Below are positions 26,143-30,232 of a stretch of DNA of 32,000 nucleotides, piece by piece. The notes below the pieces were generated by a model. That model made no database searches and was not told the origin of the DNA. It saw only the letters and a program-made list of their open reading frames with translations. Origin of the DNA: an uncultured Nitrososphaerota archaeon (GTDB lineage: Archaea; Korarchaeota; Korarchaeia; Korarchaeales; Korarchaeaceae); contig CAYZRF010000005.1 in NCBI GenBank assembly GCA_964480775.1, forward strand, positions 30,001 through 62,000, given 5' to 3'. The position numbers and the translations under genes are program-made. Within the stretch, counting starts at the first letter, position 1, and each line of letters starts with the position of its first letter.

Positions 26143-26475
26143 CTAGCTAACAGGAGATCCAGGAGGAACCTCCTTATCTGGGACTATAAGAACGGGCTTA
26201 TTTCCTTCCAAGACCGCTGCTAAAAGCATTCCCTCGGAGAGCAGGCCCCTTATCTTCTTTGGTTTCAGATTAACTAATACAACAATCTCTAGGCCTAAGA
26301 GGTCTTCTGGCTTGTATTCTTCCCCAATTCCAGCGATCAATTGTCTTTTTCCGCTTCCCAAATCTACTTCAAGTCTGATTAGGCGATCTGTTCCTGGAAC
26401 TTTTTCGGCATGAACAATCTTTCCAATTCTAAGGTCCATCCTCTTAAAATCCTCAAAACTGATGAATTCACTCAT
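26143..26475 (-). CDS. tRNA-binding (EMAP/Trbp111/CsaA-type OB-fold) domain protein
   Basis: FEDFKRMDLRIGKIVHAEKVPGTDRLIRLEVDLGSGKRQLIAGI...LKPKKIRGLLSEGMLLAA is the classic CsaA / MetRS C-terminal domain signature. Confidence 0.85.
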   Translation of the reverse strand: MSEFISFEDFKRMDLRIGKIVHAEKVPGTDRLIRLEVDLGSGKRQLIAGIGEEYKPEDLLGLEIVVLVNLKPKKIRGLLSEGMLLAAVLEGNKPVLIVPDKEVPPGSPVS

Positions 26476-26600
26476 TGCGCTTTACCTCTTTATTCTAAGA
26501 ATCAATAAATTCAAAATAAAGGTTAGGAGACCCTGAAGGTTATGATCTGCTTGCACCCTAATTTTATTAATGTTCCTTGAGAAATAAAGCACAGATTAAT

Positions 26601-27311
26601 ATGACTGGTTTCTGGGAGAGGTTAAAGGTCTCAATCGAGGCTAAATTAAACAAACTAATGGAGAGGTTTGAAGATCCCATAGAGCAACTAGATTACGCAT
26701 ATGGGAAAATGGTTCAACAATTGCATAACGTTAATATGGCGCTTGCAAGGGCTGTTACTGCCAGAAAGAGACTTGAGTTTGAGGTTGAAGAGATTGAGGA
26801 GAAAATAGCTAGACTGGATGAGAACGCCAAGAAAGCTATGAAAATGGGAAGAGAAGATCTAGCTAGGAAGGCTCTAGAGAGGAAACACATCCTCTTACTT
26901 CAGAAGAGGAGACTTGAGGAAAAGATATCAGAAATGAAAGAGGAAGAGGAAGATCTAAAGAATGTGAGGGATGACCTTGAGAATAAGGTTGAAATGTTTA
27001 GAACTAGAAAAGAGCAATTAAAGGCAGAATATGAGAGTGCAAAAGCACAAACAGAAGTTAAAGAGATGTTAACTGGTTTTGGAGATGAAGTCGTAAATGT
27101 TGCAAGGATAGTGGATAGAGCGGATTCTAGGATCAGAGATCTTGAAGCAAGATCTGCAGCCATCGATGAACTAATAGCTGTTGGGGGTACATTGGACGTA
27201 CTTGAACCTGAGGAGAGGGATGAGATAGAGAGAGAGCTGGAAAAAACCATGATTGAAAGTCAAGTAGAAGAAGAACTGAAGAAGTTAAAGGAAGAAACCT
27301 CAGGGGGCTGA
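26601..27311 (+). CDS. pspA: PspA/IM30 (Vipp1) family protein, ESCRT-III superfamily
   Basis: FWERLKVSIEAKLNKLMERFEDPIEQLDYAYGKMVQQL... followed by a long heptad coiled coil. I prefer the ATG at 26601 (MTGFWERL) over the TTG at 26577. Confidence 0.88.
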   Translation: MTGFWERLKVSIEAKLNKLMERFEDPIEQLDYAYGKMVQQLHNVNMALARAVTARKRLEFEVEEIEEKIARLDENAKKAMKMGREDLARKALERKHILLLQKRRLEEKISEMKEEEEDLKNVRDDLENKVEMFRTRKEQLKAEYESAKAQTEVKEMLTGFGDEVVNVARIVDRADSRIRDLEARSAAIDELIAVGGTLDVLEPEERDEIERELEKTMIESQVEEELKKLKEETSGG

Positions 27312-27318
27312 ATAGAAT

Positions 27319-27711
27319 TTGCCCCGCCTCTCTATTTTTCCCGTAATAGCTTTTGTAGCTGGAGGACTACTGGTTTTTTTAGGCTTAATGTTCTTAATAG
27401 CTGCAAGCTATGCCCCAACACGCATATTTCCTGGGATAATCCTGATGGGGATGGGTGCTCTAGCTATCTATGTAGGGACTTCTGGAAAGAGGAAAGAAAT
27501 GAGAATAGAGGAGATCCAAGATGATATAATAAGACTGGCTAGGAAAAGGGGGGGGAAGCTTACACTCGCAGAGGTAGTCTCCGATTTGGGATTGCCAGTT
27601 GATTTGGCTAGAAAAGCTCTTTTATCGTTAGAAAAGAGAGGTATAGCTTATCTAGACTTTGAGAAGATAGAAGACGAGGGCGTAGAGGTGTACAAATTTC
27701 CAGGAGTGTGA
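27319..27711 (+). CDS. Small membrane protein: two TM helices plus a cytoplasmic winged-helix-like domain
   Basis: The TTG start lies 7 nt after the pspA stop. TM helices are FPVIAFVAGGLLVFLGLMFLIAA and IFPGIILMGMGALAIYVG. The C-terminal region IIRLARKRGGKLTLAEVVSDLGLPVDLARKALLSLEKRGIAYLDFE..GVEVYKF has a helix-turn-helix plus wing pattern. Confidence 0.7.
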   Translation: MPRLSIFPVIAFVAGGLLVFLGLMFLIAASYAPTRIFPGIILMGMGALAIYVGTSGKRKEMRIEEIQDDIIRLARKRGGKLTLAEVVSDLGLPVDLARKALLSLEKRGIAYLDFEKIEDEGVEVYKFPGV

Positions 27712-27865
27712 AAGAACGTAAGTTCTTGTCTAAGCAACTTTCGATCTAAAAATATAAGTGAACTTTTTATATCTCTCCGCTTCATGATTTTCTGATTCGT
27801 TGGGAGGATGACTAAAGGAAACGAAAATCGTTTTCTCCTGACGTTAACGGGAGGATTTGTTAGAT

Positions 27866-29137
27866 ATGAGTTCGCTAAAAGTGAAACCACTTGGTGCTAT
27901 TGGAGAAGTTGGAAGAAGCGCCATTCTCCTAGAAACCAAGGGTAAAAGAATATTACTTGACTATGGAATAAAGCTAAGGCCGAAACAGAGCCCGCTTTTC
28001 CCTCCAGAAGTCGATAATGTAGATGCTGTGCTGTTAACACATGCACATTTGGATCATTCAGGAGCACTGCCCCTGCTTTTTAGGGGCAAGAATTCACCTA
28101 AAATCTATGGTCTTGACATAACCAGGGACTTTGTAGAACTTCTGCTCTATGATTCCATAAAGGTAGCAAAGAAGAGAGGATATACGATAGATTATGGTCC
28201 TCAAGAAATTAAAAAGCTAATGAGGAACTATAGACCAATAGAATATGGAGTTCCTTTCAAGATAGGATCTGTCGAGGTTATACCATTTGATTCTGGACAT
28301 ATCCCTGGTAGTGCCATGTTTTATGTTAGAACAAATGGGACATCTCTCCTATATACGGGGGACTTCAAGCTTAGAAATACCAGGCTCTCTCGTGGAGCTG
28401 AAAGAGAGTTACCAGAGGTAGACCTGTTGATCACGGAGTGTACTTATTCTCAAAGGGAACATCCAAGTAGAAAAGGACAGGAGAAACTCCTAAGGGAGGT
28501 AGTTAGAGATACTATCAATAGGGGGGGCCTAGCAATAATCGCTGGCTTTGCTATAGCAAGACTTAACGAGATTGCAATGATCTTGTCATCTAGTGGGATA
28601 AAAAACCTATTCCTTGATGGTATGGCGCGAACTGGAACGGAAATTCTGCTTTCATATCCCCATAGACTTAGAGATGATAAAGAGTTTGAGTACTCTTTGA
28701 GAAACCTTAGAATGGTCGGAAACTGGAAATTTAGAGAAAACATCACTAGAAGACCGTCAATTGTTCTAACAACGTCTGGAATGCTTGAAGGTGGGCCCGT
28801 TTACTTTTATCTCGATAGGAGAAGGGAAGACCCTGTGAGTTCGTTAACCCTCACAGGATATCAGATTGAAGGAACGGAAGGCAGAAGATTATTGCAAGAA
28901 GGCGAGATATACATAGATGGAGAAAGAAGAACAATAGAGATGAGAGTAAATCAACTTGACTTCTCCTCACACGTAGGTAGATCTGGTCTATTCGAATTTG
29001 TAAGGACTGTGGATCCAAAACAGGTACTTCCAATTCATGGAGAAGAAACTGAGAAGTTTGGAGAAGAAGTTCAAGAAATAGTGGGTGTAAGCGTTATATC
29101 TCCTTCGCTCGAGGAGGAGATAACAGTCTCAGGGTAA
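27866..29137 (+). CDS. Metallo-beta-lactamase / beta-CASP ribonuclease (aCPSF2-like, no KH domains)
   Basis: HAHLDHSG motif, with DSGH, ECTY and PIHGE motifs downstream. I prefer ATG 27866 because the GGGAGGA SD at 27849-27855 is 10 nt upstream. The track start at 27857 is a TTG. Confidence 0.88.
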   Translation: MSSLKVKPLGAIGEVGRSAILLETKGKRILLDYGIKLRPKQSPLFPPEVDNVDAVLLTHAHLDHSGALPLLFRGKNSPKIYGLDITRDFVELLLYDSIKVAKKRGYTIDYGPQEIKKLMRNYRPIEYGVPFKIGSVEVIPFDSGHIPGSAMFYVRTNGTSLLYTGDFKLRNTRLSRGAERELPEVDLLITECTYSQREHPSRKGQEKLLREVVRDTINRGGLAIIAGFAIARLNEIAMILSSSGIKNLFLDGMARTGTEILLSYPHRLRDDKEFEYSLRNLRMVGNWKFRENITRRPSIVLTTSGMLEGGPVYFYLDRRREDPVSSLTLTGYQIEGTEGRRLLQEGEIYIDGERRTIEMRVNQLDFSSHVGRSGLFEFVRTVDPKQVLPIHGEETEKFGEEVQEIVGVSVISPSLEEEITVSG

Positions 29138-30232
29138 TTAAGATTTGTTTTTCACAATAGGACGCCTAGAGATCTCAAAGGGAGCATCCAAAGGAGCCAT
29201 CTCAATTATCTCACCCTCTAACTCCTTTGACAGTAGTAGAGATTTGTTTTCAAAAACAATGTAGGGCGGAACTAAGAGCTCTTTACCTCTTAATTCAAAA
29301 GAATACAAGCCCATTTTCTCTAAGAAGCTTTTGAATTCTAGTAATTTGCTGAGGTTCCCTCGTATCACACCGAACATTATAGTGCCTTGGTCAGTTATGC
29401 GTTGATAGGGCTTTGCAACGTTTTTAGCCCTTCTTCTCCATCTATTAAGAACCTGTACTTCTTTTACCTCCGCAGAGCAGAAATAACCAAGAAGCCCAGT
29501 CTCCCTTTCTATATAATCTAAAACCCTCTTTGCAGTTTCTTTGCTTCCAGAAACAGCGACTCCGCTATTAATTCTAACACCATAGCCCCGAGATAAAAGA
29601 ATGGTTCTATTTCCCTCGCTAAATTCCAATTCATTGATATTTAAGAAATGAGCCCCAATAGAATCAAGGAACTTCGTAAGCTTCATTAATCTCTTTTCGT
29701 ACACTCTTTCTGGTATCGATGGCATCTCAGCTCCAACCCTAAAGTTGAAGTTTAGAGCATGTCTAATTTTTTCCCAGTCCTTCCTTTGCCAAGTATGAAA
29801 TCTAATCTCATTTAAACCAGCAGATTCTAATTTCCCCAAACTTTTAGGGTTAATACCCGCTGAATTTGTGTAAAGGTGCACATCGAATTTCTTCCCGAAG
29901 TTTTCTTTCAAAACCCGTATGTACCTACAAACCCTGTCTATAACTAAACTTGGTTCTCCCCCAGTTATTCCGGCTCCTTCGGCATCTATGAGCCTTGCTT
30001 CTCTTAGAAAATCTGATTCATCATGAACTCTTATCTCATCTGCAAAAACCCAGTCCTTTCCTCTTCTCTCAGAGGAAATCGTGCAATAAAAACAGGTCGA
30101 ATACCGCGGGCATAGTCCTGTGGCAAATAAGACGAGTTTACCCCCTCTCCAACAAATTTCGCAGGAGGGGCTTTTACCTCTTACCATTAATGAACCATAA
30201 GGGAGTTCAATCATCAGTTTATTTTCCTCCAA
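29138..30232 (-). CDS. Radical SAM-like protein with a non-canonical CX5CX2C cluster motif
   Basis: GLCPRYSTCFYCT (CX5CX2C), preceded by CEICW. GGEPS (the SAM-binding GGE motif) is present and the layout looks TIM-barrel-like. The TTG at 30232 abuts the upstream stop. ATG 30214, 11 nt after a GGAGG, is an alternative start. Confidence 0.8.
   Translation of the reverse strand: MEENKLMIELPYGSLMVRGKSPSCEICWRGGKLVLFATGLCPRYSTCFYCTISSERRGKDWVFADEIRVHDESDFLREARLIDAEGAGITGGEPSLVIDRVCRYIRVLKENFGKKFDVHLYTNSAGINPKSLGKLESAGLNEIRFHTWQRKDWEKIRHALNFNFRVGAEMPSIPERVYEKRLMKLTKFLDSIGAHFLNINELEFSEGNRTILLSRGYGVRINSGVAVSGSKETAKRVLDYIERETGLLGYFCSAEVKEVQVLNRWRRRAKNVAKPYQRITDQGTIMFGVIRGNLSKLLEFKSFLEKMGLYSFELRGKELLVPPYIVFENKSLLLSKELEGEIIEMAPLDAPFEISRRPIVKNKS

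Follow-up and report, generated by a model that had tools for sequence, protein, structure and literature searches.

Introduction

Within the ESCRT-III superfamily, PspA and Vipp1 make up the branch found in bacteria and archaea. This study concerns a 32,000-nt stretch of DNA, called the window below (positions 30,001 to 62,000 of contig CAYZRF010000005.1, assembly GCA_964480775.1; contig C5 of genome G000 in our numbering), which comes from a Korarchaeota metagenome-assembled genome of 1.82 Mb that is 90% complete. Within it, pspA is directly followed by a gene for a 130-amino acid (aa) protein predicted to combine two transmembrane (TM) helices with a C-terminal winged helix (wH), here called the 2TM-wH protein. 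The recruitment of PspA and Vipp1 to membranes is largely unexplored beyond a few model bacteria, and archaeal Psp systems are essentially uncharacterized (PMC9239133, PMC7619361).

A membrane-anchored winged-helix partner of a PspA-family protein has been described in cyanobacteria and chloroplasts, where VIA1 and VIPP1 form a module (Yilmazer et al., 10.1101/2023.10.10.561251; PNAS 2026, PMC13505992). VIA1 (CPLD50), a WH protein embedded in the membrane, has Snf8 as its top structural match; it binds helix alpha1 of VIPP1 through a loop of its WH, and this binding is required for VIA1 function (10.1101/2023.10.10.561251; PMC13505992). Compared with this published description, the 2TM-wH protein is likewise membrane-embedded by prediction, has a wH whose best match is ESCRT-II Snf8, would have a PspA-family protein as its partner, and contains no recognizable Pfam domain. 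However, VIA1 is much longer, with about three TM helices between two WH domains (in the order WH1, TMs, WH2), whereas a 2-TM hairpin and a single WH make up the 130 aa of the korarchaeal protein. The VIA1 link was found by pull-down, with binding demonstrated, while the korarchaeal link is a strict operon of two genes, whose products may bind each other.

Two further systems couple a wH to ESCRT-III-type polymers. The second WH domain (WH2) of SNF8/VPS22 (EAP30, PF04157; PDB 3CUQ, 2ZME, 1U5T), which is the best PDB match of the korarchaeal wH by both profile and structure, binds protein and works together with polymers of the ESCRT-III family, but SNF8 is a soluble member of a heterotetramer with two tandem WH domains and an N-terminal helix, in contrast to the single WH on a TM hairpin seen here. 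In CdvA–CdvB of the Thermoproteota and in euryarchaeal wH/ESCRT-III loci (PMC11188069), a wH module is also coupled to an ESCRT-III-superfamily polymer at the membrane. There the wH lies on CdvB itself and binds a CdvA peptide, and the system includes Vps4, whereas in Korarchaeota the polymer is PspA and the wH sits on a TM protein. Makarova et al. (2024; PMC11188069) regarded the wH as an ESCRT building block that contacts ESCRT-III and noted that PspA genes often adjoin wH genes.

Among the smaller partners of PspA, PspAA (PF22743; Ravi et al., 2024, PMC11237479; for example, M. acetivorans MA_1460) is a small alpha/beta domain of three helices and a beta-sheet, encoded directly 3′ of pspA in two-gene clusters that occur in archaea and bacteria (PMC11237479). 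It is a soluble domain in which an R and a D are invariant, unlike the korarchaeal protein, which is membrane-bound by prediction, and identity with PspAA was rejected, PF22743 giving no match in the open reading frame (ORF; E <= 0.1) or in the whole genome while the M. acetivorans control did match. LiaI–LiaH of B. subtilis and PspB/PspC–PspA of E. coli comprise small membrane proteins that are co-transcribed with a PspA homologue and recruit or regulate it at the membrane, which is the role proposed here. Nevertheless, these proteins have no sequence or fold relation to the 2TM-wH protein and no winged helix, and liaI precedes liaH; PspB, PspC and LiaI-LiaF-TM were rejected as identities as none of their Pfam models matched at E <= 0.1.

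Results

pspA and the 2TM-wH gene form a putative two-gene operon conserved across Korarchaeota

pspA (positions 26601–27311 of the window, + strand) runs from an ATG at 26601 to a TGA at 27309–27311 and encodes a 236-aa protein of the PspA/IM30 family of the ESCRT-III superfamily. The product matched PF04012 over its full length and above the Pfam gathering score (E 3.2e-27; 96 bits against a cut-off of 33.9; residues 4–232 on profile positions 2–217 of 220), matched TIGR02977 below threshold (E 1e-14), and was the only PF04012 match in the 1.82-Mb genome. The ATG at 26601 was taken as the start rather than the upstream TTG at 26577 because orthologues begin at equivalent MxGFW residues. The 2TM-wH gene (27319–27711, + strand, 130 aa) starts with a TTG, which is supported by the ATG or GTG that orthologues carry at the same codon. 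The two genes are separated by a 7-nt spacer (ATAGAAT, 27312–27318), and both coordinates and spacing agree with the preliminary description of this DNA, made from the sequence alone. As 37 distinct orthologues, down to approximately 40% identity, share a conserved motif pattern, the 130-aa frame is not a chance ORF.

At every archaeal 2TM-wH locus fetched, the gene immediately 5′ on the same strand is pspA. This holds for 6/6 genome-contig loci, for 30/30 loci from the whole class, where the spacing is −11 to +55 nt, for 2/2 genomes of a second class in the phylum, and for 9/9 metagenome contigs. Presence and absence follow the same pattern: among 43 Korarchaeota species genomes, pspA (PF04012) was found in 36, strong 2TM-wH matches were found in the same 36, and the remaining seven had neither. 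Two genomes without both genes, G040 and G009, are 98% and 95% complete. In G040 and G037, csaA abuts tldD and exactly pspA and the 2TM-wH gene are gone from an otherwise syntenic locus, while the congeneric genome G038 keeps the pair. Of all the evidence, this removal of both genes together argues most strongly, in our view, for their acting as one unit. In both loci, which belong to genus g5 (L087:5454-7217 in G040 and L089:5231-7007 in G037), csaA is followed by about 110–120 nt and then by tldD.

The surroundings of the pair vary more than the pair itself. Comparison of the window with loci L066, L083, L004, L070 and L072 revealed that csaA lies 5′ of pspA in the window's genus and 3′ of the 2TM-wH gene, in convergent orientation, in other Korarchaeia genera, but never between the two. 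The shift of csaA reads as a local transposition around an intact pair. In G046 the flanking genes are different and the pair is kept. No archaeal lineage outside Korarchaeota was found with the pair. The preliminary description had made conservation of the pair beside archaeal pspA a point on which its proposal would stand or fall; conservation proved strict within Korarchaeota, where the pair is lost as a unit, but was found in no other archaeal lineage. A natural PspA–2TM-wH fusion in G015, suggested by long open-frame values, was rejected, since pspA there ends in a stop codon of its own and is followed by a spacer of 51 nt.

A GGGGG run resembling a Shine–Dalgarno sequence (27303–27307, + strand) lies within the 3′ end of pspA, 12–16 nt 5′ of the TTG start. 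Similar G-rich runs (GGGGG, or GGAGG/GAGGG in more distant loci) precede the start in most of the orthologous loci shown, with GGGG only at locus L073, and the gap between the genes leaves no room for a promoter. The G-rich run and the spacing of −11 to +55 nt across loci suggest that pspA and the 2TM-wH gene are co-transcribed and probably translationally coupled. An operon structure is thus indicated by gene spacing, and given its conservation across the phylum and its loss as a unit, pspA and the 2TM-wH gene probably form a dedicated two-gene operon of Korarchaeota. A TATA-like box read from the sequence, AATTTTATTAAT (26560–26571, + strand), lies 30–41 nt 5′ of the pspA ATG and is a putative archaeal promoter for the operon; T/A-rich boxes occur at a matching distance in the orthologous loci L005, L003, L004 and L066. 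A search 5′ of pspA found no operator-like inverted repeat, the sole palindrome being a trivial ATTAAT at the start codon. Scans for sigma-70 promoters and intrinsic terminators are not applicable to archaea.

The 2TM-wH protein is predicted to be a membrane hairpin with a cytoplasmic winged helix

The two hydrophobic helices reported earlier were confirmed. TM helix 1 comprises residues 5–28 (27331–27402, + strand), with a Kyte–Doolittle mean of 2.5, and corresponds to helix 6–28 of an AlphaFold2 (AF2) model; TM helix 2 comprises residues 37–54 (27427–27480, + strand), with a mean of 1.68, and lies within AF2 helix 33–76. The short outer loop between them carries a conserved P-x-R-x-x-P-G motif. 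TM2 is followed by a basic juxtamembrane linker (SGKRK…; 27481–27495, + strand), predicted to be cytoplasmic by the positive-inside rule, and the KRKEMR linker noted previously is indeed present. Over the 37 orthologues, the mean number of K plus R is 3.7 in the 16 residues after TM2, compared with 1.0 in the TM1–TM2 loop. Because the basic residues follow TM2, the positive-inside rule would place the winged helix in the cytoplasm, on the side of PspA, and the protein is predicted to be a helical hairpin with both ends cytoplasmic. A check of TM topology had been suggested at the outset, and this is its outcome.

The winged-helix domain covers residues 60–130 (27496–27708, + strand). The AF2 model, built from a 17-sequence alignment, has a mean predicted local distance difference test (pLDDT) score of 82, rising to approximately 90 over the C-terminal domain. 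In it, residues 33–76 form one continuous helix that comprises TM2, the linker and helix 1 of the wH with no break; the elements after helix 1 are a strand at 80–82, helices at 83–90 and 94–106, and strands at 111–113 and 124–126. This is the H1–S1–H2–H3–S2–wing–S3 topology, and as modelled the C-terminal domain is a canonical winged helix, bearing out the fold proposed earlier for this segment of about 70 aa.

The winged helix is most similar to WH2 of SNF8/VPS22

The top Foldseek matches were winged-helix domains at probability 1.00. VIA-align returned 341 chains at Z >= 8, which among the matches listed were wH domains, and ranked the C-terminal WH of human SNF8/VPS22 (3cuq_A) first, with Z 11.2, a root-mean-square deviation of 1.6 Å, 65 residues and 29% identity. 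Profile comparison with all PDB sequences gave the same protein: a profile of 17 sequences (A2) matched SNF8 at E 3.8e-5, with the next match at 9e-3, and a profile of 90, mostly bacterial, sequences (A3) matched it at E 6.2e-7, followed by EutK_C at 3.8e-3. The alignments of profile and SNF8 span the whole wH and share the pattern LA..GG.T..E...L....A...L..L...G......G..Y..P. The 2TM-wH family profile therefore has a specific sequence similarity to the ESCRT-II WH (SNF8 WH2), which we read as an affinity to the Vps22 WH2 type. The analogy with ESCRT-II drawn in the preliminary description fared better than expected in this respect.

Single sequences behave differently from profiles. EAP30 (PF04157) matched the 130-aa protein with 13.9 bits against a threshold of 26.8, and its best score among the 90 family members was E 2e-4. 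The EAP30 architecture of a soluble protein with two tandem WH domains and an N-terminal helical region is not that of the AF2 model, which has a 2-TM hairpin and a single WH. Because both the threshold and the two-WH architecture are missed, we do not count the 2TM-wH protein among the EAP30 family. The Pfam EAP30 match was rejected as stand-alone evidence, being unspecific for single sequences. No Pfam or NCBIfam model reached its threshold on the 2TM-wH protein, single family sequences gave weak matches to EAP30, GntR, IclR, MarR, TrmB, Rrf2 and EutK_C, and everything that a search of the ESM Atlas brought up was either an unnamed cluster or scored below 0.9.

The winged helix is acidic

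The wH domain is acidic, with a pI of 5.5 and a median net charge of −3. The mean net charge of H3 and the wing is −1.7, compared with +7 to +8 in the TM-tethered winged helix-turn-helix (wHTH) proteins of Korarchaeota, which have the appearance of DNA-binding proteins. Matches of the 2TM-wH protein to the DNA-binding wHTH regulators MarR, IclR, GntR and TrmB were sub-threshold, and its recognition helix and wing are not basic. The acidic wH, together with the lack of an operator-like repeat before pspA, disfavours a DNA-binding regulator. A membrane-tethered regulator had been offered earlier as the alternative to a docking adaptor, and the acidic recognition helix and wing tell against it.

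The basic proteins used for this comparison are about 300 aa long and consist of a signal peptide, an ectodomain, a single TM helix and, at the C-terminus, a strongly basic wHTH (RATVWRRLRRLEREG...). A 699-aa korarchaeal protein has a large ectodomain and ends in a TM helix and a like wH. Proteins of these kinds are encoded at L084:1249-2181 (− strand), L085:466-1374 (+ strand) and L086:1542-3641 (− strand), in genomes G016, G017 and G011. The 2TM-wH profile picks these korarchaeal proteins up weakly (E 1e-11 to 4e-6), and from their sequences they look like membrane-tethered one-component DNA-binding regulators.

The wider family is mostly bacterial

An exhaustive hidden Markov model search of 1.84 billion cluster representatives found 3,265 proteins with E <= 1e-3, of which 1,226 had E <= 1e-10. 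The family appears to be mostly bacterial, and the relatives that could be placed taxonomically belong to Gemmatimonadota, Acidobacteriota and Myxococcota. Among the matches listed, many family members are 240–330 aa long, with N-terminal zinc ribbons and an extra TM helix before the 2TM and wH module; short forms and tandem-wH forms are also present. The bacterial relatives examined (L008–L016, P0012–P0161) are arranged as Zn ribbon, TM, Zn ribbon, linker, 2TM and wH over approximately 240–330 aa and constitute a large unannotated family, the wH part of which is covered by no Pfam model. Gemmatimonadota genomes have up to six family matches each, including frames of 530–630 aa with two tandem wH copies, and one protein of the family (P0027) is a soluble tandem-wH protein. 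DUF2157 was weakly matched by 4/90 members of the wider, mostly bacterial family (E >= 1.4e-3). The 130-aa form with a YLDFE..EGVEVY(R/K)FP wing was found, among sequences of placeable source, only on Korarchaeota-type contigs, and a search for longer fused forms gave a single match.

The bacterial genes stand apart from pspA. In five bacterial genomes, pspA was on other contigs or outside the fetched flanks of the family gene, and in seven complete-contig Gemmatimonadota genomes the two genes were approximately 0.8 to 2.7 Mb apart. A link of the bacterial relatives to pspA was therefore rejected, as the fetched loci do not overlap and the same-contig distances are of that size. The neighbours of the bacterial family genes are heterogeneous (SH3_3, M24 peptidase, FUR, cupin, LanC and Zn ribbon). 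PspA occurs in 20/20 Gemmatimonadota genomes that have the family, but also in 103/121 overall, which gives a chance probability of about 0.04 that is confounded by phylogeny, so that we draw nothing from this overlap; the Gemmatimonadota samples include the unpublished genomes G142 and G102. In two bacterial loci another gene adjoins pspA: at L017:2175-2576 (− strand; Sandaracinaceae, myxobacterial) and L019:1026-1493 (+ strand; Gemmatimonadota), a gene for about 130–155 aa lies directly 5′ of pspA on the same strand, and it may encode the chaperone partner, CesT/YbjN-like, that Ravi et al. described.

Flanking genes and other ESCRT-related matches

In the window, a csaA-like gene for a tRNA-binding domain (26143–26475, − strand) lies upstream of and divergent from pspA. 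A gene for a beta-CASP/metallo-beta-lactamase RNase (27857–29137, + strand) follows the pair; its listed start is a TTG at 27857, with an alternative ATG at 27866, and a hairpin and T-run (27833–27855) lie just 5′ of it. The genome, which is 90% complete and was searched with models that are weak for archaea, gave no Snf7 match, a sub-threshold CdvA match and no clear Vps4. Two matches to Vps4_C (PF09336) were found, both in one 883-aa open frame (G000:C17:5864-6793; L090, L091), whose length and two matches suggest a double-AAA ATPase of the Cdc48 type, not Vps4.

Discussion

On the combined evidence we lean, if only slightly, towards the view that the 2TM-wH protein serves PspA as a dedicated dock or regulator at the membrane, in analogy with VIA1 and VIPP1 and with ESCRT-II and ESCRT-III. 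The protein would be a resident membrane partner of PspA, in which TM2 continues as one helix into the cytoplasmic ESCRT-II (SNF8/VPS22 WH2)-type wH and so provides a rigid connection. The wH may bind soluble PspA, most likely at its N-terminal helical hairpin, as in the pairs Vps25–Vps20 and VIA1–VIPP1, and would in this way tether PspA polymers to the archaeal membrane, nucleate them there or hold them back, the partner being made in co-translation with PspA. A protein-binding Vps22-like wH, a rigid link to a TM hairpin and co-translation together suggest a dock, a nucleator or a brake for PspA polymers. The reading is supported by the fact that the closest wH relative by profile and structure, SNF8 WH2, binds protein. 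Physical contact between wH and PspA is proposed by analogy with these systems, and its effect may be either recruitment or inhibition.

Several observations weigh against this proposal. In the structural ranking, the wH domains of Zalpha and TFIIIC come within 1 Z unit of SNF8, which amounts to a tie. The single-sequence match to EAP30 is unspecific; it is the fourth-best weak match in its own genome, and the EAP30 model finds matches in 13/14 control genomes at E <= 1. The bacterial family genes are unlinked to pspA, so that the domain has no intrinsic tie to PspA. Lastly, tldD, pmbA, csaA and the beta-CASP and radical-SAM genes are also syntenic across most of the class; adjacency alone is therefore weaker as evidence, part of it being general synteny.

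Three other explanations have to be set beside a docking partner. It is somewhat unlikely, in our judgement, that the 2TM-wH protein is coupled to PspA functionally with no docking of its wH on PspA, acting instead as a membrane-stress sensor, a protected client or an adaptor for a third protein. The genomic evidence shows shared function rather than contact; the bacterial relatives have no pspA linkage and carry extra Zn-ribbon and TM modules, and the ligand of the wH may be generic. Moreover, within ESCRT-II, SNF8 WH2 binds Vps25 (structures of Hierro 2004 and Teo 2004, as cited in PMC13505992). The contact with ESCRT-III is made by the WH2 of Vps25 and not by that of SNF8. On the other hand, the korarchaeal operon has two genes and no third conserved partner, the pair persists in G046 despite its differing flanks, and VIA1 is a membrane WH protein that binds a PspA-family protein directly (PMC13505992).

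A membrane-tethered transcription factor, whose wH would act on DNA to control the pspA operon or a stress regulon while the TM hairpin senses the membrane (ToxR/CadC-type or PspF-like), seems to us distinctly unlikely. Most wH domains do bind nucleic acid, Korarchaeota do have TM-tethered wHTH proteins, family members give weak matches to HTH_IclR (22/90), MarR_2 (16), TrmB (16) and GntR, and MarR-type structures, like Zalpha, nearly equal SNF8 in VIA-align score. All the same, every DNA-binding Pfam match is below threshold, the exposed positions of H3 are not conserved as basic across the family, and the charge of the domain and the region 5′ of pspA argue in the same direction, as described above. 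That there is no functional link at all, an unrelated small membrane protein merely being held beside pspA by lineage-wide synteny, we regard as highly improbable. The flanking genes are likewise syntenic in most of the class, as this explanation would have it, but it fits poorly with the tight spacing or overlap at all loci and the probable translational coupling, with the identical presence and absence in 43 genomes, with the excision of precisely both genes in G040 and G037, and with a pair that keeps together in G046 and around which csaA has moved without ever coming between.

How new the pair is depends on the level of description. A full-text literature search found no description of a korarchaeal PspA partner, and two large Psp surveys do not mention Korarchaeota. 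The preliminary description did not recognize the partner type from the characterized Psp systems. The protein is not PspAA, PspB/C or LiaI, but the partner type does have a published and tested precedent in VIA1 (10.1101/2023.10.10.561251; PMC13505992). Because VIA1 has already been published as a membrane-anchored wH partner of a PspA-family protein, the finding is not categorically new. What has not been described is the family, which has no Pfam or NCBIfam model, the minimal form of a 2-TM hairpin with a single WH, the strict operon with pspA, and the occurrence in an archaeal phylum.

A broader proposal, which we consider unlikely, is that the 2TM-wH protein is a branch of a large unnamed prokaryotic family of membrane-anchored Vps22 WH2-like proteins, maybe homologous to the WH of VIA1, that generally dock PspA/Vipp1 polymers, acting in cis in the case of Korarchaeota and in trans in that of bacteria. 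If this were true, winged helices of the ESCRT-II type would have been in contact with polymers of the ESCRT-III type before archaea and bacteria diverged, and this contact would not be an archaeal invention. The search in any case exposes a large, mostly bacterial protein family for which there is no Pfam or NCBIfam model.

In summary, the analysis of the window led to a minimal module of two genes, phylum-wide in its distribution, that appears to hard-wire an ESCRT-III-superfamily polymer to a membrane-anchored Vps22-like winged helix. Both proteins are small, one pair is encoded in a Korarchaeota genome that consists of a single contig of 1,590,757 bp (G016), and the proposed contact is accessible in vitro. 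The comparison points to the korarchaeal pair as an archaeal counterpart of the chloroplast VIA1–VIPP1 module and to an old link between winged-helix and ESCRT-III-type proteins. As an independent archaeal example of the VIA1–VIPP1 principle, the pair would lend concrete support to the proposal that the pairing of wH and ESCRT-III was the seed of ESCRT systems (PMC11188069).

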